DNA of 24,000 bases, taken from NCBI GenBank assembly GCA_964488065.1, contig CAZATM010000043.1:273-24272 (forward strand), read 5' to 3'. This DNA comes from an uncultured Neisseria sp. (GTDB lineage Bacteria > Pseudomonadota > Gammaproteobacteria > Burkholderiales > UBA11063). Under the pieces are notes generated by a model. The model made no database searches, was not told the origin of the DNA, and saw nothing but the letters and a program-made list of their open reading frames with translations. The translations under genes and the position numbers were made by a program. Numbering within the stretch: position 1 is the stretch's first letter; the number at the start of each line of letters is the position of its first letter. Positions 2,075 to 24,000 of the stretch are shown here, one piece after another.

Positions 2075-2786
2075 CTACCATTCAGTTGGAGTCTTGTTAT
2101 AGTCGATGAAACTCCCTGAATCTATTAGTTGCAGATTCTCGATTAACGAAATTATTTTGGAAGCACTTTCTGCTACTGAAATATTTGCGCCGCTACCGCC
2201 CATTTCGGTTTTAACCCAGCCAGGGCGCAGGGATATTGTAATAATATCGCGGTTTTCCGCAGCAAAGGAACGTGTCAGCATGTTAAGAGCTGCCTTTGAC
2301 ATTCGGTAGGAGTAACCAAAACCTTTTGCATGGTGTATGTAATGAACCCATTAAACTGGACAGATTGATAATGCGTGGATTTATGGATTGCTGTAAATTA
2401 GGCAAGAAAGCTTGAATTGCACGAAATGCACCCGCGGTATTGATGTCGAATGCAGACATAAGCTGCTCCGGAAGGGTTTTTTTTATTCCATCCTGAGAGT
2501 GGTTTTCTGGAAAGATTCCAGCATTATTGATCAGGATGTCTATTTTTAGATGAGCAATTTTTTTTGAGAGCACGGCAAAATCATTTGAGTCGGTAACATC
2601 CAACTTTTCAGTTTGCAGCTGGCTTGTGTATTGTGATTTTAAATTTTGCAGGAGATCGGCTTCGTTTGGATTTCGGCAGGTAGCGATTACCTGGTATCGC
2701 TGTTTTAAAAATTCAGATACCAGCCCCAGCCCAATTCCACGATTTGCTCCGGTGATTAGTACACACTCTTCAGTATTTGTGTTCAT
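2075..2786 (-). pseudogene. Short-chain dehydrogenase/reductase (C-factor/CsgA-like SDR) split by a single frameshift
   Basis: ORF 2283-2786 carries the Rossmann motif (LITGANRGIGLG), NNAG and INLSSLMGS, then runs out of frame. ORF 2075-2302 carries the rest (MSKAALNMLTRSF...RPGWVKTEMGG). In the second frame, the residues just upstream of its Met read KGFGYSYR, completing the catalytic Y-x-x-x-K motif (YSYRMSK). Removing one A from the A4 run (T4 at 2324-2327 on +) restores one ~236-aa SDR. Confidence 0.8.
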
Positions 2787-2809
2787 GACATCGTTCCTGA
2801 ATAAAATAA

Positions 2810-3499
2810 CTAATTGAGTTGCTGTATGATCGCGCGTAATACTTCCGACGGATCGCAGGCTTTGGTAATCGGGCGGCCGATTACCAGATAATCTGCGCCG
2901 TTAGCTAGTGCATTGGCTGGAGTCATGATTCGGGTTTGATCATCAGTTTGATTATCCGCCAAACGAATACCCGGTGTCACGGTGATAAATCCGGGAGCGG
3001 TTGCGGCTTTGATTGAGTTGGCTTCCCATGCCGAACACACCACTCCATCCAAACCGCAATCATGGGCTAATTGTGCTAAATGAGTTGCCTGTTGCGTTAT
3101 TGGATATAAGTAGCCAACCTCCGCAACCTCTACCTCAGATAGACTGGTGAGGATGGTTACCGCAATTAGTAATGGTTTATGCTTACTGTCAATAATCGCT
3201 TGGCGAGCCGCGGTAAGCATTTCCCGTCCACCGCTGGCATGAACATTAACCATCCACACACCCAGACTGGCAGCGGCTTTTACTGCCTTATAGACGGTAT
3301 TGGGTATATCATGGAATTTCAGATCCAGAAAGATTTCAAACCCGCGTTGCTGGAGTGAATGAACTATCTCTGGGCCGTAAAGTGTAAATAACTCCTTACC
3401 AATTTTCAGATAACAAACCGCCGGATTTAATTTATTTACCAACTCAAATACTGCTTGCTGATTATCTAAATCCAATGCCACAATGATCTGTTTGCGCAT
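2810..3499 (-). CDS. pyrF: Orotidine 5'-phosphate decarboxylase
   Basis: 229 aa. IVALDL...LKIG...DLKFHDIPNTV...GRPI are canonical PyrF motifs. AGGAGAGGAT lies just upstream of the ATG. Confidence 0.95.
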   Translation of the reverse strand: MRKQIIVALDLDNQQAVFELVNKLNPAVCYLKIGKELFTLYGPEIVHSLQQRGFEIFLDLKFHDIPNTVYKAVKAAASLGVWMVNVHASGGREMLTAARQAIIDSKHKPLLIAVTILTSLSEVEVAEVGYLYPITQQATHLAQLAHDCGLDGVVCSAWEANSIKAATAPGFITVTPGIRLADNQTDDQTRIMTPANALANGADYLVIGRPITKACDPSEVLRAIIQQLN

Positions 3500-3546
3500 A
3501 TCCTCTCCTGAGAAAATGTATTTTTATTGATCCTAATACTCACTCC

Positions 3547-3560
3547 AGACACGCGTGTCT
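3547..3560. repeat. Perfect 14-bp GC-rich palindrome agacacgcgtgtct in the antiporter-pyrF intergenic region
   Basis: The sequence is its own reverse complement. It sits in an otherwise AT-rich 86-bp gap and has no following U-run on the transcribed (minus) strand, so it is not a typical terminator. Confidence 0.5.
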
Positions 3561-3585
3561 CGCGACGCCGGCTTCGTTACTTAAG

Positions 3586-4965
3586 TTACAGATGTACTCG
3601 CTTAACTCCGTATTTATTAACCGCGATTTTTAACATAATTGGTGCCAAAATGGTAATGCTGACCAAAGCTAACACGATTGATGAAATTAATTCATCCGAA
3701 ATTAGTCCGAGTTGGCTGCCGGTAATTGTAAAAATTAACCCGGCCTCACCAATCGGGGTCATCCCCAATCCAATGATTAATTTGTTCAATCGGCTGTGTT
3801 CGCTAAAGCCACTAATAATCCGCCCCAGCAAAGTAACGGTAATTAGCGCCAGTGCGACCAATACCACTGAAATATTCAGTAAGTCATCGAGATGGAAAAT
3901 CAGTCCAATATAGGTGAAAAAAAATGGAACAAAGATATTTGATAATGGTTTTATTAATTCATCAAGCGAGCGAATTTCATAGAGGGTTACGGTCTTAATA
4001 ATCTGATTGCGGGCATTTTCATCGCTGGTATGTGAGGCAATCGATTTAAAGTCGCGCAGAAATTTGGCCTGCGAGAAATTCTTGAAATATTCCGGATTGA
4101 TGATTAACCCGGCAATAAATGCGCCAATTACCGGTGCCAAGCCCAATTCGGCTGCCAACCAGGTATAAAAGGTACAAATCATAAATAAGATGCCGATTTT
4201 CATGCTGATTCCGGCATGAATTTTTATTGAAAATTTGGTGAGAATCGGAGTTAAACGGGGACCCAAAATTATTGATAACAGAAAAAATCCGGTAGTCTTG
4301 GCGGCTGAAATCATTAGCTGATTTAGGTTAATGTTGCCGCTAATTAAAACTCCCGATAAGACCGCAAAACATAAAATGCTTAAAACTTCATCAATCAGTG
4401 AAGCGGTTAAGACGGTTTTTACTTCGACGCTATTTAAAATTTTGAGGTCTTTAAATACTTTTCCGGAAATTCCAGTGGCGGTTGCTGCCGAAATTAGGCC
4501 CAATAAAATTTTGCTGCCATTACTGCTTTCGGGATAGAAAAAATCAATAACAAAATAACCGCCGATGAAAGTTAAAACCGTCCCAAACAATGCAATTTTC
4601 AAACCGGAAGCCAGCTTGGCGGTAATATCCTCAAGCTGGGTTTCTAAACCAATCTCAAACATCAAAATCATGGCACCGATTTCGGCGAGGAAACGGACAA
4701 TTTCGTTATTTTCCATCCCTGTAAAGGTATAAATGCCAAAAAAATGCAGATTACCAAGCACGATACCGGCTAAAATTTCCGAAGTTACGATCGGCAAACC
4801 AAATTTTTTTACCACCGCCAACCCGCGTGACATCATGATAGCCAAGGTAAACCATAAATAAATTGCGGGAGTGAAGTCATTGGCTGGGGGAGTGGCTGCG
4901 CTAGCAAAGCATTGTTGACTGATTCCAATAATTAGCATAAAAATTAGAAGCAGTTTAGCGCGCAT
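3586..4965 (-). CDS. Cation:proton antiporter (CPA2 / Na+/H+ exchanger family membrane protein), no KTN domain
   Basis: 459 aa, polytopic and hydrophobic throughout. The EIGLE-type segment (MFEIGLETQ) and the general pattern fit the Kef/NapA-type exchanger family. The N-terminus is signal-peptide-like ([23 protein letters not shown]). The start codon overlaps the mutS stop by 11 nt. Confidence 0.8.
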
Positions 4966-7546
4966 GGGTATCTTTCTGGATTAGTGCCGTTAAATCATAC
5001 AAAATATCCAGTGCCTGACGGGCGCTTAATTGATCGGGGTTTAGTACAGCCAAGCGCTGATATAAATCTTCGGCAATGGGATTGGCTTCGATACTCTCTG
5101 TTTCAATGTCATTGAGTGCAAATAGATCTAGTTGCGGATTGTCTTGGCTGTTATCTTCCAAATGCTGGAGATATTTTTTGGCAACGGTTAAGACGGTTTT
5201 GGGAACTCCCGCGAGTGCCGCAACTTGAATTCCATAGCTTTTGGCAGCAGGTCCATTTTCAACCTGATGCATAAACACAATCTGGTCTTTGTGTTCAACC
5301 GCGTTTAGATGGGCATTCAGCGCCTGCGGATAATGACAGGCTAAATCGGTTAATTCAAAATAATGGGTGGCAAATAGTACGTATGAACTTGATTTTTCAA
5401 TCAGATAACGGGCAATTGCATAAGCCAATGCCAAACCATCATAGGTTGAAGTACCGCGCCCGACCTCATCCATGATCACCAGTGATTTTGCGCCGGCATT
5501 ATTCAAAATATTGGCGGTTTCTGACATCTCAACCATAAAAGTAGATTTGCCGGCTGATAAATCATCGGAAGCGCCAATTCGGGTAAAAATCCGGTCAATG
5601 TCACCGATAATCGCATTTTGTGCCGGCACAAATGAGCCGCAGTAGGCTAAGAGGGCAATTATTGCGTTTTGGCGCATATAGGTTGATTTACCGCCCATAT
5701 TGGGACCGGTTAATAATAAAAAACGTTTTTCCGGACTTAGTTGTAGGTCATTGGCAATAAATTGGTCAATTTGCCGTTCAACTACCGGATGGCGGCCACC
5801 ACTGATTTGAAATTTTAATTCACTGGTTAATAGCGGACGGCAATAGTTGTTTTGGCGGGCAATTGCGGCAAAAGCACATAGGACATCAAGGCTGGCCAAA
5901 GCGTGCGCCAAATTTTGCAGTTGATTAATAAAACCGGTTAAATAATCAAGGATCTCTTCATATAAGCGTTTTTCCAGCGCCAGAGCTTTATCTTGTGCCG
6001 ACAACACTTCGTTTTCATAGTTTTTGAGTTCCGGAGTGGTAAAGCGTTCGGCATTTTTTAGCGTTTGTGTGCGGCGGTAGTGTGCGGGAGTTTTATCCAG
6101 ACTTCCGCGCGAGATTTCAATAAAATAACCATGCACCCGATTGTATTCAATTTTCAGATTGGCAATGCCGCTTTGCTCGCGTTCACGGGCTTCCAGTTCC
6201 AACAAAAATTGACTTCCGCGGCTGTGAATGGTACGTAAATAATCCAAATCCGGATGGTAGCCATCATTGATGACGCCGCCTTCTCTTAATACCAGTGCCG
6301 GTTCGGCTTTGATGGCGTGAGCTAAGCGCTCATGGACTTCACCACTGGTGGTGGTAATGGTGGTATAGATTTCACTGACTAATGGTGGCAAAGTTATTTC
6401 GCCGATAAAGCCGAGTTCCGGTAGGATTGCCAGCGAATTTCTCAGCGCCGCTAAGTCACGTGGACGGGCGCTACGTAGGGCAATCCGGGCGCAAATCCGC
6501 TCTATATCACCAATTTGGCGTAATAACGGTTGAATTTGCCCATGCAGACCCTGCAAAGTTTCAAGCGCATCATAACGAGCATTAATTTCAGCGTGGCGCC
6601 GTAACGGGTTATTCAACCAATTATCCAATAGGCGGCTACCCATGGCGGTAGAACAATTATCCAGTGTCGAGAGCAAGGTCGGTGCGGTTTCGCCGCGAAT
6701 GGTGTGGCTGATTTCAAGATTTTTACGCGATACCGCATCTAAAATCAGATAATCATCACTAATATCTTCAATCAAATTATTAAGATGTGCCAGTTCATTA
6801 TTTTGAGTGTGTTTAGCATAGTCCAAAAGCACTCCGGCAGCAGCAATTGCCAGTTTTGAAGCGGACTCAATGCCAAAGCCTTCCAACGAGCTAACCTGAA
6901 AATGATTGATCAGTTTGCGATAACTTAAATCATAGTCAAAATGCCAATCAGGAACTATTTTACAGGCAATTTCCGGATAAATGCTGCGAATTTCGCTTAG
7001 TTGCGATTCACTGACAACAATTTCTGCCGGTCTTAAGCGCTCCAATTGATTATAAATTTCGGAGCGGTTGCCTTCACTGATTCGAAATATCCCGGAACTT
7101 AATGATAACCACGCCATGCCGTAGCGGTTTTTATGAATAAATAGCGCCAGCAGCAAATTATTTTGTTTATCATCCAGTAAATTTTCGTCGGTCAAGGTTC
7201 CGGGAGTGATGATGCGGGATACTTTTCGTTCGACCGGACCTTTGCCGGTGGGTTCACCAACCTGATCGACAATCACCACCGACCGTCCCTGTTTGACTAA
7301 ACGGGTTAGATATTGTTCGGCGGCATGAAACGGCACGCCAGCCATTTTGATTGGGGTGCCGGCCGAAGAGCCACGCTGAGTTAAGGTGATGCCCAGCAGG
7401 CGTGCGCCAAGTTCGGCATCTTCAAAAAACATTTCATAAAAATCACCCATCCGATAAAACAACAACATATCCGGATGATCGGCCTTGATGCGCAGATATT
7501 GCTGCATCATTGGGGTATGCTGGGAAAAATCGGTTGGTGTGCTCAT
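4955..7546 (-). CDS. mutS: DNA mismatch repair protein MutS
   Basis: 863 aa. [34 protein letters not shown] at the N-terminus, Walker [10 protein letters not shown] and the STFMVEM motif. Confidence 0.98.
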
Positions 7547-8481: not shown

Positions 8482-9792
8482 TTAATTTGTAACAGAAAAT
8501 GATTGTTCCGCGGTTTGCAAATCAAATGCGTATCCCATCAACGGTGCGGTACCGGTGAAAGTCAAGGTTTGATGAGCCGGTAATAACAACTCAGGGGCAT
8601 TTTTAACCGGAGTAATAAAGCGGTGCATCCGGTTTTGTGCATCTGGTTGTGTATCAAAGTTCATGGTATAAATACCACTAGCTTCAGCAAAGCCTTTTGT
8701 ATTTACCATTAAGGTTGACACCCAAATTGGACTATTATTGATATCTTGTGCTACAAAAGAAATATCTTTGCCATATACTGGTTGGGTGCTATCACAATTA
8801 TTTTGGACTGCTACTTGAATTTCCGTATTCATTGTTGTTGCATCTGGATCGACAAAAACATGACCACTCAAACAAGCGCTAGGAGTAGCGGGAATATTTT
8901 GTACGAGGAGTGTTCTTTCCGCAGTGAAAAAGTCATACTTACTTCCATGCAATGTAATTGGACTGCTCAATTGAACGCCTTGGTGAGGATCTAAAACCAG
9001 ATTATCTGGCGCTAATTTTCCATACAAATAGTAATCTGCACTGTTAAATGGAACGCTGTAATTGGTGTTGTTGGCTGCGACACCCTGTATTTGAGTAATA
9101 CCAACCGGATATCCTGCTAAATCTTGAGATAGGAATGATATTTCCTTACCTTTTAAAGGTTGTGGAACATCGCAACTATTTTCAACATAAAAAATTGCGG
9201 TATTAGCTTTTTTTGCATCCGGATTCTCAACCATCATATGAGCCTTGATACATTTATCTGCTAGTGGATTAGCCTTGTCGATAATCTGTAGTGTAGCATT
9301 GGCTGTTTTGCTATCATAGGCAACCCCGTTTAAGGTTCCGTTACCTTTCATCATAATCCCTTCTTGAGGGGCTAGAGTAAATTTTTTGGTAGCAACGCTT
9401 TGTACTAAGCCGGTTTGTGGATCTACTGCGCCAAAACTTAAAGAATATTTTTTACCATTATCTGCCGTAGCACTAAATGTTGTCGGTGCATTGATTGGTG
9501 TTCGTGCAACATCTTGAGACATGAAGGCCAAAGATTTGGTGTTTAACTGTAAGGTTTCACTACAATTGTTTTGGATAGTCAATAGCAGATTGTTTTTAGT
9601 TTTAGAGTTTGGTGTGGTTGAATTTAGGTTTATAATCAAACAAGATGGTGTTGTCGGTGTAGTTTGTGCTGACACCTCAGTTGTTGTGGTTGAACCGGCT
9701 TGATTACTGGCTCCGCTATTACAAGCGGTCAATCCGAACATACCTGCTGCAGAAATTAAAACACCCAAGTATTTTTTATTTGAAGCTTTCAT
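8482..9792 (-). CDS. Lipoprotein of unknown function with three tandem ~125-130 aa two-Cys modules
   Basis: 436 aa. It has a signal peptide with lipobox GLTA|C (Cys24) and a Thr/Ser/Pro-rich linker (aa 25-49). Three homologous modules follow, each starting x-C, with N-[NS]-C about 26 residues later and then the motif [LI]-[AS]-F-[MLV]-[SA]-Q-D. Confidence 0.85.
   Translation of the reverse strand: MKASNKKYLGVLISAAGMFGLTACNSGASNQAGSTTTTEVSAQTTPTTPSCLIINLNSTTPNSKTKNNLLLTIQNNCSETLQLNTKSLAFMSQDVARTPINAPTTFSATADNGKKYSLSFGAVDPQTGLVQSVATKKFTLAPQEGIMMKGNGTLNGVAYDSKTANATLQIIDKANPLADKCIKAHMMVENPDAKKANTAIFYVENSCDVPQPLKGKEISFLSQDLAGYPVGITQIQGVAANNTNYSVPFNSADYYLYGKLAPDNLVLDPHQGVQLSSPITLHGSKYDFFTAERTLLVQNIPATPSACLSGHVFVDPDATTMNTEIQVAVQNNCDSTQPVYGKDISFVAQDINNSPIWVSTLMVNTKGFAEASGIYTMNFDTQPDAQNRMHRFITPVKNAPELLLPAHQTLTFTGTAPLMGYAFDLQTAEQSFSVTN
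8485..9645 (-). repeat. Three tandem protein-module repeats within the lipoprotein gene (about 9256-9645, 8878-9255, 8485-8877)
   Basis: Module starts align by eye: SCLIINL..LLLTIQNNCSETLQLNTKSLAFMSQD / KCIKAHM..AIFYVENSCDVPQPLKGKEISFLSQD / ACLSGHV..IQVAVQNNCDSTQPVYGKDISFVAQD. The repeats are diverged at the DNA level. Confidence 0.7.
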
Positions 9793-21075: not shown

Positions 21076-21176
21076 CAGGTGTTTCCTCATATAATTTGAA
21101 AACAATATTATACCGCTAAATAACCCTATAATAATTAATATTTATACCATAGTAATTAATTAAATCCCGGGTGAAT

Positions 21177-21929
21177 TTAAGGTGCAGATTTAAAATATTC
21201 GTTGCTGATCAATTGGTAAAGGTGGTCTGCCAATAAATCCCGCGAAGAAAAGTCTCGGGCATTGATTGGCGGTAGAATGGTAACATTAATGGTCAGGTCT
21301 TTTAGTTTAATCGTATTCATTACGGTTTGTAACCAATTAACCTTGGCAAAGGTGACTTCTGTCGCTAACTGATCATCTTCTTTGCGATAACTTAGGACGA
21401 CTGGAAAAATTTTACTGTCTGCTAGCAGCGCCGCTTCCAGAATTGGTGCTTTAAACGGGGCAATTACCTTACCGTCACCTGTTTTTCCTTCCGGGTACAA
21501 TCCAATTGTCGAACCCGTGGTTAAATATTTGGCGACTTGCTGATTGACATTTAGGATATCTTTCTTCTTGCGGCGGTCGATAAAAATAGTACCCCCGGCT
21601 TTGATTACCGTTTTTAAGATTGGCCAGTTTAACATTTCTATTTTACCAATATAGCGGACAAAACATAATCGCAACATAACAACCGTGTCCAGCCATGAAA
21701 TATGATTTGACACTAGCATGGCATTTTTTAGTTCTTCATTATTTAGTGGATAACCTTTAATCTGCAGCTTGGCTCCCGTCGAGGCAATCAGCATTCTCGA
21801 CCATGCCATTCGGACATATTTGCGGATGATTTTCAATGAAAATGGTGCAATTAGGATAATAGCCAGCACCATGAATGCCATACTGGCAATTACGGCAACA
21901 AATCGGATTCTACTAATTAACCAGCGCAT
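21177..21929 (-). CDS. plsC: 1-acyl-sn-glycerol-3-phosphate acyltransferase family protein (PlsC-like)
   Basis: 250 aa with an N-terminal TM segment. It has the acyltransferase HX4D motif (NHISWLD) and the YPEGKT (PEG) motif. Confidence 0.85.
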   Translation of the reverse strand: MRWLISRIRFVAVIASMAFMVLAIILIAPFSLKIIRKYVRMAWSRMLIASTGAKLQIKGYPLNNEELKNAMLVSNHISWLDTVVMLRLCFVRYIGKIEMLNWPILKTVIKAGGTIFIDRRKKKDILNVNQQVAKYLTTGSTIGLYPEGKTGDGKVIAPFKAPILEAALLADSKIFPVVLSYRKEDDQLATEVTFAKVNWLQTVMNTIKLKDLTINVTILPPINARDFSSRDLLADHLYQLISNEYFKSAP

Positions 21930-22187
21930 GAGTTCCTCATCAGTAAATAGGCAAATGATTATTTCTTAAGCGGCGCAATGGTTGGATCCAATCTTAATTG
22001 GAAGTCGAACCACGGGTAACTTAATATAAACTTTGGAGATGGCTCATTAACCCAATTTTCTGCGTTGATGATAGATGCTGATTATGAGTTGAGAGATTTC
22101 CAAAATAATAATTATTGTAAAGGAGTTATTTTAGCGTAATGCTATGAATTTATCAAACCGACTTATTGGAATATTTGCTAAAAAATA

Positions 22188-22216
22188 TTGACAAAATCAA
22201 ACGTATGTTTTACAAT
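22188..22216 (+). promoter_or_regulatory. Near-consensus promoter: TTGACA, 17 nt, TACAAT
   Basis: TTGACA at 22188-22193, a 17-nt spacer, TACAAT at 22211-22216. It lies about 38 nt upstream of the small ORF ATG at 22254. Confidence 0.55.
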
Positions 22217-22253
22217 ATCTTATTGAAACGAATGTTTGAAAATGGAGTGTAAA

Positions 22254-22415
22254 ATGAATACAATCTTGATTATAATGGCTAGCTGGGTGGTTATCTTATT
22301 ACTACCGGCGATTTCTTTTCATAAAGTTGCGGAGTACTTACGTAAATATAGCCACTATCAATTGAAACTAAAACGCCGCGCTAAAATACAACAATTACGC
22401 GTCGCTCATCAATGA
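22254..22415 (+). CDS. Small single-pass membrane protein, 53 aa (MNTILIIMASWVVILLLPAISFHKVAEYLRKYSHYQLKLKRRAKIQQLRVAHQ)
   Basis: GGAG lies 6 nt before the ATG, with a near-consensus promoter upstream and a hairpin downstream. It has one N-terminal hydrophobic helix followed by a strongly basic tail. I recognise no family. It is under the track's 60 aa cutoff. Confidence 0.45.
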   Translation: MNTILIIMASWVVILLLPAISFHKVAEYLRKYSHYQLKLKRRAKIQQLRVAHQ

Positions 22416-22452
22416 TACACTGCTAAAGCGGAGAAATTTCATTATCGCTAGA

Positions 22453-22482
22453 GGTGTAATAATTTTTACTAATTACTACACC
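22453..22482. terminator. Hairpin between the convergent small ORF and the pentapeptide-repeat gene
   Basis: ggtgtaataatt (22453-22464) pairs with aattactacacc (22471-22482): a 12-bp stem with one mismatch and a 6-nt loop. The U-runs are weak. It is flanked by an outer pairing ctagag (22448-22453) / ctctag (22496-22501). Confidence 0.45.
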
Positions 22483-22564
22483 CCATTTCATAGAGCTCTA
22501 GGAATCTCTTCTACCGGCATAAACTGTTAATGTTTAAGTCAGTAATGCTAATAGCTATTATGAT

Positions 22565-23458
22565 TTAGAGGCGATAGGCTTTTTCCAGATTTACATCTTT
22601 TGTTACTAAGTAATTATAAGTTTCTTTGTCGATGTGCGCGCCACTAAAATCAACATTTTTTAGAGAACGGGTTTTAAATTTCACCTGACGCAGAACGCAA
22701 TTGCGAAAAGAGCAATTTTTCAAATTCGCCCAACGAAAATTTACATTAAATAACGTTAACCCATCAAAATTAATTCCTTCCAGATTTGAGCAATTAAAAT
22801 TGGTATTAACCAATATTGCGTCGCGAACAATTACATCTTCGAGATTGGACTTGCTTAAAATACAATCACTGAGATTAGCACCAGTAAAGTTTACGTTTTC
22901 AAGATTGCTAAACCGTAAACTACTGCCTCTCAAATTGGCATGGCTAAAATCGGCACTATCCAAATTACTGAAATTAAATTTACTATTTTCGAGATTGGCA
23001 TGGGTGAAGTTGGCTTTGTCCAGATTGCTTAATGAAAAGCGTCCATTAGATATTGTATTATTGGCAAAATTAACCTTATCCAGATTGCTCATGCGAAAAT
23101 TTCCACTTGGGAGATTAGAATTACTTAGATCTGCTCGATCTAAATTACTTAGCGAGAAACTGGTTTTAGGTAGGTCGCTATTGCTAAAATCACAATTCTC
23201 CAAATTTTTGAAACGGTAATTTTTATGCTCGTGATGCTCTTTTTTTAGATCATAGGCATCAATAATTTCTTTAATATCACCGACTGTTGCCAACGTTTTT
23301 TGTGTGGCTTCAATTTCCGGTAGTCCATGACTGCAGAGTTCTTGAAATTTTTCGTCCAGATCATGTAATAATTGTAGTTTTAATTCTTCTAATTCTTCGC
23401 TACTGCGGTAATTTTTGAAAACATTATCAATAAATTGGTGAATAGTTGGATTTTGCAT
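22565..23458 (-). CDS. Fusion protein: N-terminal PadR-partner helical domain (DUF1700/HAAS-like) plus a C-terminal pentapeptide-repeat beta-helix; soluble
   Basis: 297 aa. Residues ~5-70 (IHQFIDNVFKNY..EELEELKLQLLHDLDEKFQELCSHGLPEIEATQKTLATVGDIKEII) fit the three-helix pattern of domains encoded next to PadR regulators. Residues ~83-285 are about 40 consecutive pentapeptide units (e.g. SNLDRADLSNSNLPSGNFRM). There is no hydrophobic segment. AGGA lies upstream of the ATG, and the gene starts 28 nt after the padR stop. Confidence 0.85.
   Translation of the reverse strand: MQNPTIHQFIDNVFKNYRSSEELEELKLQLLHDLDEKFQELCSHGLPEIEATQKTLATVGDIKEIIDAYDLKKEHHEHKNYRFKNLENCDFSNSDLPKTSFSLSNLDRADLSNSNLPSGNFRMSNLDKVNFANNTISNGRFSLSNLDKANFTHANLENSKFNFSNLDSADFSHANLRGSSLRFSNLENVNFTGANLSDCILSKSNLEDVIVRDAILVNTNFNCSNLEGINFDGLTLFNVNFRWANLKNCSFRNCVLRQVKFKTRSLKNVDFSGAHIDKETYNYLVTKDVNLEKAYRL
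22604..23212 (-). repeat. Pentapeptide-repeat coding array with a 20-aa (60-nt) super-period, about 10 coils
   Basis: Successive 20-residue blocks each begin SNL[DE]/ANLK/RSLK (SNLDRADL.., SNLDKVNF.., SNLDKANF.., SNLDSADF.., SNLENVNF.., SNLEDVIV.., SNLEGINF.., ANLKNCSF.., RSLKNVDF..). The corresponding DNA shows a degenerate 60-nt periodicity. Confidence 0.8.
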
Positions 23459-23486
23459 AAATTTTCCTTATTATATGTTGATATAT

Positions 23487-23819
23487 TTACATTAGTTGAT
23501 CAAGAATTTGCTTGGCTAATTCCCATTGTTGATGGTTTCGAATATAGCATTCGCGACCGCTCTCGGTGATGGCGTAGTATTTGCGGCGTCCACCAGAGGT
23601 TTCATCACCCCAATAGGATGTGACTTTCTCTTCTTGCTGTAGCCGCTTTAAGCAGGAATAAAGGGTTGCTTCTTTTAATTCAAATTGTCCATCGGTGGTT
23701 TTTTCAATTATTTTACAGATTTCATAACCATATTTGTCGCCGTCAAACAATAATTTCAAAATGATGGTATCCACATGGCCGCGCAAGAGGTCAGTGGAGA
23801 GTGTGAGAGATTTTTCCAT
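23487..23819 (-). CDS. PadR-family transcriptional regulator (short, ~110 aa subfamily)
   Basis: LLRGHVDTIILKLLFDGDKYGYEICKIIEKTTDGQFELKEATLYSCLKRLQQEEKVTSYWGDETSGGRRKYYAITESG is a typical PadR winged-HTH. The start is placed at Met46 of the track ORF (ATG 23817-23819), with AGGA 7 nt upstream. The 45-aa extension in the track ORF is not PadR-like and would overlap the likely promoter. Confidence 0.9.
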   Translation of the reverse strand: MEKSLTLSTDLLRGHVDTIILKLLFDGDKYGYEICKIIEKTTDGQFELKEATLYSCLKRLQQEEKVTSYWGDETSGGRRKYYAITESGRECYIRNHQQWELAKQILDQLM

Positions 23820-23840
23820 AAGGTTTTCCTTGTTGTATAT

Positions 23841-23863
23841 ATTACTATGCAAAACATAGTAAT
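23841..23863. promoter_or_regulatory. Perfect 9-bp inverted repeat ATTACTATG-N5-CATAGTAAT; candidate PadR operator overlapping the padR promoter
   Basis: attactatg (23841-23849) and catagtaat (23855-23863) are exact reverse complements with a 5-nt spacer, 22-44 nt upstream of the padR ATG. On the minus strand the repeat overlaps the spacer and part of both the -35 and -10 hexamers of a TTAATT-16-TAATAT promoter-like arrangement. Confidence 0.55.
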
Positions 23864-24000
23864 TAATACGTGATTGTATAACAGGTAATGGAAAACATGC
23901 TAGTTTTTTAGCAGAAATATTTTTTAGAAATAGTGCAGAGCAAAAATACCACACTAAACATTATCTAGCAGTTATTTTGATGATTGTGGTTGGAAGTGGT

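Follow-up and report, generated by a model that had tools for sequence, protein, structure and literature searches.

A conserved PadR repressor and HAAS-type pentapeptide-repeat partner with a predicted shared operator in an uncultured betaproteobacterium

Introduction

The HAAS domain and the HAAS-PadR dyad, in which a standalone PadR winged helix-turn-helix (wHTH) gene lies next to a HAAS gene, were defined by Ravi et al. in 2024 (mSystems; PMC11237479). The dyads have been put forward as a widespread alternative to two-component systems, and almost none of them has been tested. Among the architectures catalogued in the text and Table S4 of that paper is 'PadR-like-wHTH->HAAS+Pentapeptide', represented by Bacillus muralis AOH56696.1, stated to occur 'mostly in Firmicutes' and known from comparative genomics only. 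Here we describe a gene pair of this architecture on the minus strand of a 24,000-nucleotide stretch of DNA (the window; contig CAZATM010000043.1) from an uncultured betaproteobacterium. The pair, located at 22565-23819, encodes a PadR repressor and a predicted soluble partner in which a HAAS-type N-terminal domain (N-domain) is fused to a pentapeptide-repeat β-helix.

The closest experimentally studied analog is LftR/LftS-LieAB of Listeria monocytogenes. LftR and LftS are encoded by a bicistronic operon and are a PadR repressor and a small soluble DUF1048 partner, respectively (PMC4517056; bioRxiv 10.1101/2023.07.27.550809). LftS is needed for the induction by aurantimycin of the LieAB ATP-binding cassette (ABC) pump, which is repressed by LftR (bioRxiv 10.1101/2023.07.27.550809), and DUF1048 has been unified with HAAS by Ravi et al. 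(PMC11237479). LftS differs from the partner described here by the absence of a β-helix, and LftR/LftS is linked to the LieAB pump, whereas no pump is linked to the window pair.

On the repressor side, the comparison is with LmrR of Lactococcus lactis, which reportedly senses drugs directly and has no HAAS partner. LmrR (PDB 3f8b) and the PDB entries 9qbd and 1xma share with the window PadR a length of ~110 amino acids (aa), a wHTH followed by a single C-terminal helix, and a tryptophan in this helix. The β-helix of the partner recalls Qnr, MfpA, AlbG, and McbG, which have a right-handed quadrilateral β-helix of similar length and a C-terminal helix. The window protein differs from these in scoring far below the family cut-offs, in being near neutral instead of acidic, and in carrying an extra N-terminal regulatory domain; the resemblance is one of fold only.

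Results

The first gene of the pair, padR (23487-23819, minus strand; ATG at 23819, TAA at 23487), encodes a wHTH repressor of 110 aa. Its length, the wHTH with a single C-terminal dimerization helix, and a match to PF03551 (76 bits, E 2e-21, cut-off 27) place the protein in PadR subfamily 2, the LmrR-like group. A spacer of 28 nt (23459-23486) separates padR from an open reading frame (ORF) of 297 aa (22565-23458, minus strand). The spacer contains the ribosome-binding site AGGA at 23465-23468 and lacks a hairpin, implying co-transcription of the two genes. A terminator scan found no intrinsic-terminator-like sites between or after them, and a Kyte-Doolittle scan found no hydrophobic segment in the fusion protein. 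This layout and the solubility of the partner had been deduced in an earlier analysis of the window (the sequence-only reading), and both are confirmed. From its N-terminus, the fusion protein is composed of an acidic HAAS/perm_prefix_1-type helical domain (residues 1-74; 23237-23458), a pentapeptide-repeat right-handed β-helix (residues ~85-275; 22634-23206), and a C-terminal cap (residues 276-297 and the stop codon; 22565-22633), all encoded on the minus strand.

Related loci were fetched in two sets, 21 at first and 12 later (10 for other cluster representatives and two Peribacillus plasmids). A padR homolog (E 1e-37 to 1e-72) lies immediately upstream of the partner gene in 20 of the first 21 loci, and an upstream padR adjoins the partner in all 12 later ones, so that the anticipated synteny of the two genes holds. 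The lone exception, L020, matches the repeat region only. A standalone PadR wHTH gene next to a HAAS gene, the defining trait of the dyad, is thus present in the window and in its relatives.

The nearest relative, with 92% amino-acid identity, is found in a Pseudomonadota metagenome-assembled genome (MAG; locus L007). Relatives at 26-43% identity are found in Listeria sensu lato (nine species or strains), a Sporolactobacillaceae MAG, other Bacillota, and Pelotomaculum, as well as in an Ignavibacteria MAG and in metagenome contigs. The PadR proteins linked to these partners are better conserved (49-63% identical to the window PadR across phyla, versus 26-43% for the partners), and all those examined are LmrR-like. 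The partner encoded on the Peribacillus plasmid pD is a HAAS::pentapeptide protein, and that of the P. asahii plasmid is anchored in the membrane. Synteny and operator conservation together span at least four phyla and a plasmid.

The genes that directly follow the pair in the same direction vary between lineages, and an efflux pump or membrane gene is found there in about half of the relatives. They encode a DrrA-type ABC ATPase (PF13732) and an ABC-2 permease in Listeria sensu lato and the Sporolactobacillaceae MAG, a partial ABC ATPase in L022, a major facilitator superfamily transporter with a membrane-fusion protein and an outer-membrane factor in L001, an Rce1/CPBP-family protein in L033, and a BrkB/YihY-family protein in L029. 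No co-directional downstream gene is present in eight of the 15 informative lineages (the window, L007, L016, L023, L028, L030, L032, and L034), and in the window no pump or other obvious target gene follows the pair. Judged from gene order, export or immunity is a recurrent, not universal, predicted output. In the metagenome contig L027, a second HAAS::pentapeptide gene (1252-1677; a leader of ~80 aa, then repeats) lies directly downstream in the same direction and is an apparent tandem paralog.

The N-domain is acidic, with a net charge of -8 (pI 4.8; -4 to -16 across the family), and contains the motif S/T-[IV]-G-D-I-x-E. Its residues 13-69 cover 58 of the 59 positions of the NCBIfam model NF038403 (perm_prefix_1). 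This model is matched above its cut-off by the N-domain of the Listeria ortholog (44.5 bits) and is matched by all 47 nearest N-domains (best E 4e-17), among which Pfam HAAS (PF22564) is the commonest Pfam family, ranking top in 15 of 47 at E<=0.1. A profile built from the N-domains of three orthologs was searched against 1.84 billion cluster representatives (E<=1e-3) and retrieved 2213 proteins, including multi-transmembrane (multi-TM) and Toastrack fusions; in all of the best 150 of 2213 the domain is N-terminal or nearly so. A further large search with the profile yielded nothing but short protein fragments that carry no domain annotation. Given the Listeria ortholog, the 47 matching neighbors, and the profile search, we regard membership of the HAAS/perm_prefix_1 group as secure at the family level on sequence grounds. 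The sequence-only reading had equated the domain with both Pfam DUF1700 and 'permease prefix domain 1'; the latter name holds at the family level and the former does not. We discounted the weak Pfam matches of the N-domain to Imm3, KARI_C, and DUF1896 as helical noise.

The AlphaFold model of the N-domain shows three helices, the third of which is kinked at the invariant Gly60, and DSSP assigns helical segments to residues 4-15, 21-43, 48-58, and 62-74. The predicted local distance difference test (pLDDT) values are 85-96 in the full-length model, and their mean is 80.5 when the domain is modeled alone. In the HAAS domain of Ravi et al., the third helix is kinked at a GxP motif (PMC11237479), whereas the window protein has G-D-I-x-E at this position.

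The architectures of the best 150 of the 2213 relatives, taken as 50%-identity cluster representatives, comprise 38 HAAS::pentapeptide fusions without TM segments, 11 Toastrack fusions, and 67 membrane proteins, the pentapeptide share being biased upwards by a query profile built from pentapeptide fusions. The kink motif of the subfamily reads G-[DN]-[IV]-x-E, and the proline is missing in all three groups of these 150. The partners with a Toastrack (DUF4097) or multi-TM module belong to the same N-domain subfamily and share the PadR clade and the operator. They differ in the C-terminal module and are membrane-anchored or sub-membrane, in contrast to the window partner, which lacks any hydrophobic segment.

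The sequence-only reading had asked how rare the fusion is and had stated that its idea would fail if the architecture were already common and annotated. By this measure the fusion is neither rare nor novel: the architecture is listed in PMC11237479 (text and Table S4), accounts for the 38 of 150 nearest representatives given above, and is annotated in RefSeq as 'pentapeptide repeat-containing protein', the plasmid copy included. The accompanying statement that no PadR-partner/pentapeptide fusion has been characterized stands, with no member experimentally characterized. The window locus agrees with the catalogued dyad (PMC11237479) in having padR first and, always adjacent to a standalone PadR gene, a soluble partner with an N-terminal HAAS-type domain and pentapeptide repeats. 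It differs in its betaproteobacterial host, and we find the architecture also in the second Pseudomonadota MAG, the Ignavibacteria MAG, and the metagenome contig L001.

The pentapeptide-repeat assignment of the remainder of the partner is borne out by matches over residues ~85-290 to PF00805 (114.9 bits, cut-off 20.2) and PF13599 (110 bits, cut-off 38). The ~38 pentapeptides (~190 aa) form a regular β-helix in the AlphaFold model, with pLDDT >92 for residues 130-297, followed by a short helix at 278-286. The Pfam scores, the model, and the top Foldseek hits, which are pentapeptide-repeat proteins (PRPs), agree on membership of the pentapeptide-repeat (Rfr-fold) family. Residues ~89-127 constitute a two-coil insertion relative to the closest homolog, with pLDDT <50; no tandem duplication at the DNA level was found behind the two extra coils. 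The C-terminal cap, delimited by alignment and AlphaFold, carries the family motif F-x-G-A-x-M-D-K-x-T-Y-x-x-L-K, in the window FSGAHIDKETYNYLV. By analogy with MfpA and Qnr, we infer a role of this cap in dimerization. The NCBIfam HalA model scores 30 (cut-off 250), and the PADLOC defense models match neither PadR nor the fusion protein.

The region upstream of padR contains the perfect 9-bp inverted repeat reported in the sequence-only reading, with arms at 23841-23849 and 23855-23863 and a 5-nt spacer. The repeat extends to 15-nt arms with 87% complementarity (23835-23869), and its end lies 18-24 nt upstream of the padR ATG. An arm of at least 9 bp arises in ~2.4% of composition-matched random 181-nt sequences, so that the repeat is weak evidence alone. 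Its core, the predicted operator TACTATG-N5-CATAGTA (23843-23861), matches without mismatch the consensus TACTRTG-N5-CAYAGTA, which occurs in the 120 nt ahead of padR in all 17 independent loci, against an expectation of 0.012 per 120 nt. Matches were allowed up to three mismatches and usually have at most two. The palindrome is typically 17-41 nt from the padR start codon in relatives and is also present on a Peribacillus plasmid. Given this conservation in every one of the 17 loci, the predicted operator and the autoregulation of padR that the sequence-only reading had suggested are well supported by comparative sequence evidence.

In Levilactobacillus spicheri (L021), TACTTTG-N5-CACAGTA precedes a padR paired with a Toastrack partner, which indicates that the operator belongs to the PadR clade and not to the β-helix. 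The LftR operator, GTAWTAC-N3-ATAC, is likewise a partial palindrome rich in GTA/TAC and differs from the present consensus; LftR (PDB 6ABQ) is itself distant from the window PadR (E 1.7e-8, versus ~1e-24 for LmrR). Neither the operator consensus nor the tally of downstream genes is found in the accessible parts of PMC11237479.

In Bacillota the operator reads TACCTTGACWGNCATAGTA and includes a TTGACA -35 box in its left half, with a -10-like hexamer 17 nt beyond. In the window, a TATACAAT block is conserved with L007 amid diverged flanks. It includes a putative -10 hexamer, TACAAT (23873-23878, minus strand), and this position suggests that the operator would lie at about +5 to +23. Farther out, 100-145 nt upstream of padR, a non-coding block of ~45 nt (~23920-23965) is well conserved with L007 (5478-5525), and the DNA between this block and the promoter is diverged from L007. 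An operator-like site with two mismatches and a perfect left half, TACTATGGTATAAATATTA, was also noted at 21136-21154 (minus strand), 60-80 nt upstream of the likely ackA start. As ~0.17 matches with at most two mismatches are expected by chance in the whole window, this site may be a fortuitous AT-rich promoter sequence.

The two-gene cassette appears, from sequence comparison, to have been acquired horizontally. The window shares with L007 a segment of 1.44 kb (23983-22553) at 89.7% nucleotide identity; the similarity ends ~12 nt past the fusion stop codon, and upstream of padR it reaches the window end and may continue beyond position 24000. The two loci have unrelated flanking genes, and this, together with the plasmid copy, points to transfer of the two genes as a unit. 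GC content is 32-38% over 21800-24000 (the cassette and the downstream intergenic DNA), compared with 40-48% in neighboring genes, consistent with a foreign origin. A plasmid blastn search gave just PadR-level similarity (69-72%) to Peribacillus plasmids. In L007 the upstream neighbors, at 2187-5166 and on the opposite strand, are a C39-peptidase ABC exporter of the bacteriocin type and a 273-aa protein without Pfam hit; downstream lies a convergent 4-alpha-glucanotransferase gene.

Discussion

We interpret the locus as an autoregulated two-gene signaling cassette that represents the 'HAAS+pentapeptide' variant of the HAAS-PadR type, and assign this interpretation a probability of roughly 75%. 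In the mechanism we envisage, a PadR dimer would bind the TACTRTG-N5-CAYAGTA palindrome and repress the padR-partner operon and, in other taxa, also the downstream export or immunity genes. The partner would contact PadR through its acidic N-terminal HAAS/perm_prefix_1 domain, and the cytoplasmic β-helix, probably dimerized via the conserved C-terminal cap, would serve as the input or docking module. The partner would relieve repression by PadR in response to a signal, most probably a toxic compound or the resulting cell damage; LftS provides a tested parallel. Since repressor and anti-repressor would share one repressed promoter, switch-like behavior of the circuit would be expected. The two-protein switch of the sequence-only reading thus survives in its conserved pair, PadR-associated N-domain, soluble partner, and operator, and not in its novelty, its DUF1700 assignment, or its DNA-mimic input.

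Several results weigh against the cassette interpretation. The N-domain of the window protein itself scores 21.7-25.6 bits with NF038403 (E 1e-5 to 1e-4), below the cut-off of 30. Pfam DUF1700 (PF08006) and HAAS (PF22564) do not match it even at E<=10, and Pfam scans of the N-domains of two orthologs likewise gave no DUF1700 or HAAS match. A Foldseek search of the N-domain model against the PDB returned no match at E<=0.001, and a hidden Markov model (HMM) search of N-domain profiles against PDB sequences returned nothing credible. At the DNA level, a promoter scan found no sigma-70 consensus -35/-10 on the padR strand. Drug efflux is not a general output, as the eight of 15 lineages named above have no co-directional target gene. 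Lastly, the window PadR might sense a ligand without its partner, given that the ligand-sandwich tryptophan is kept.

This last point is the core of one alternative, in which PadR would be the sole sensor of a hydrophobic or aromatic ligand and the HAAS::pentapeptide protein would be a regulated product, such as an effector, an immunity factor, or a scaffold. The window PadR aligns end to end with LmrR, as it does with 9qbd and 1xma (E 4e-31 to 3e-24). A tryptophan of the C-terminal helix, aligned with the LmrR residue that we take to be W96, the ligand-sandwich residue, is invariant in all 18 partner-linked PadR proteins. LmrR is also said to work without a partner. The PadR clade examined here, however, is invariably paired with an N-terminal HAAS-type domain, which is carried on C-terminal modules as different as pentapeptide repeats, Toastrack, and multi-TM segments. 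No part of the partner is better conserved than this domain, which argues for a conserved PadR-facing function. The study of the Listeria system leaves undecided whether LftR senses aurantimycin alone or with LftS, but it finds LftS to be required for induction (bioRxiv 10.1101/2023.07.27.550809). On balance, we consider PadR as the only sensor unlikely.

A more far-reaching form of the cassette interpretation would make the β-helix a cytoplasmic receptor of a specific intracellular event, whether the docking of a drug-stalled topoisomerase or, for flux sensing, of the nucleotide-binding domain of a transporter, or the direct binding of an antibiotic, and would make the acidic HAAS domain a DNA mimic that strips the PadR dimer from its operator. 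We regard this as a long shot. If it were true, the widespread, plasmid-borne cassette would represent an uncharacterized class of antibiotic-sensing switch, whose regulon could be deduced in any genome with the operator consensus.

The proposal of the sequence-only reading that the β-helix itself is a topoisomerase-binding DNA mimic similar to Qnr, MfpA, and AlbG, and that its occupancy by gyrase or a gyrase-poison complex controls the release of PadR, draws on the PRP fold and size of the domain. MfpA, QnrB1, AlbG, and EfsQnr are among the Foldseek matches, but the neighbors are generic PRPs; designed solenoids and the cyanobacterial Nostoc Np275/276 come first, and MfpA, QnrB1, and AlbG rank lower, at 12-18% identity. 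Dimeric gyrase-binding PRPs have a C-terminal helix after the last coil, and the AlphaFold model of the window protein shows one as well. The DrrA-type ABC ATPase (PF13732) just downstream of the pair in Bacillota relatives is in line with this proposal, as is the LmrR-like nature of PadR, LmrR being a binder of planar DNA-intercalating drugs. The charge of the β-helix is not that of a DNA mimic: residues 86-297 have a net charge of +1 (pI 7.8), and across the family, many members of which are basic, it runs from -8 to +7, values that refer to sequence-level charge and not to surface potential. The family models fall far short of their cut-offs, with 52.6 versus 240 for Qnr (NF033086), 39.7 versus 360 for MfpA (NF000349), and 30.7 versus 460 for QnrB; the QnrA, B, S, C, D, E, and VC models all score <45 versus cut-offs of 425-500, and the HetL and Alr5209 models outscore those of Qnr and MfpA. 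Coil number, moreover, varies about two-fold within the family. Charge, HMM scores (30-53 bits versus 240-460), and variable length thus disfavor a gyrase-directed or DNA-mimic input, which we judge very improbable.

A merely fortuitous adjacency and inverted repeat, with a generic pentapeptide-repeat protein behind an unrelated helical leader, would fit the below-threshold HMM scores of the window N-domain and the ~2.4% of random sequences with a 9-bp repeat, but is effectively refuted by the synteny and the operator, which are kept on a plasmid and in no fewer than four phyla, and by the NF038403 matches of 47 of 47 related N-domains.

Read as a HAAS-PadR-type cassette, the window locus can be annotated as an autoregulated PadR/HAAS-pentapeptide module, an apparently horizontally acquired proteobacterial member of a catalogued architecture and not a discovery. 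To the catalogue entry, our analysis adds an operator consensus that holds across phyla and is usable for regulon prediction, a recurrent, non-universal link to export pumps and immunity-type membrane proteins, and evidence for mobility of the cassette (the Peribacillus plasmid, and two Pseudomonadota genomes that share it at 90% identity in unrelated flanks). The soluble pentapeptide variant, which comprises two small cytoplasmic proteins and a predicted operator of 19 bp, is also the simplest to work with.

Other features of the window

The window is chromosomal DNA of ~41% GC. Its MutS is 56-68% identical to the best named matches, from Burkholderiales, Neisseriaceae, Chitinivorax, and Leeia, and the genes in the neighborhood of the cassette are ordinary (ackA, a PlsC-like acyltransferase gene, ggt, treBC, tnaA, and mutS). 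No Rfam matches were found in the window. A 436-aa ORF at 8482-9792 (minus strand) has no NCBIfam match at E<=1e-10 and is surrounded by well-annotated housekeeping genes. Antisense within the pentapeptide gene, at 22701-23219 (plus strand), lies an ORF of 172 aa, most likely no gene but a mirror-frame artifact of the repeats.

Between the fusion gene and a convergent small ORF, the centroid structure shows a hairpin at 22451-22484 with a perfect 14-bp stem (GGGGTGTAGTAATT / AATTATTACACCTC). It lies ~80 nt beyond the fusion stop codon (z = -2.3 for a 155-nt segment) and is a possible bidirectional terminator, without a T-run after it on the minus strand. The convergent ORF (22236-22415, plus strand) encodes 59 aa, is missing from the cassette in L007, and matches no PADLOC model. 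A near-consensus sigma-70 promoter, TTGACA-17-TACAAT (11/12), precedes it at 22188-22216. With its hydrophobic N-terminal half and basic tail, the product may be a small membrane peptide.

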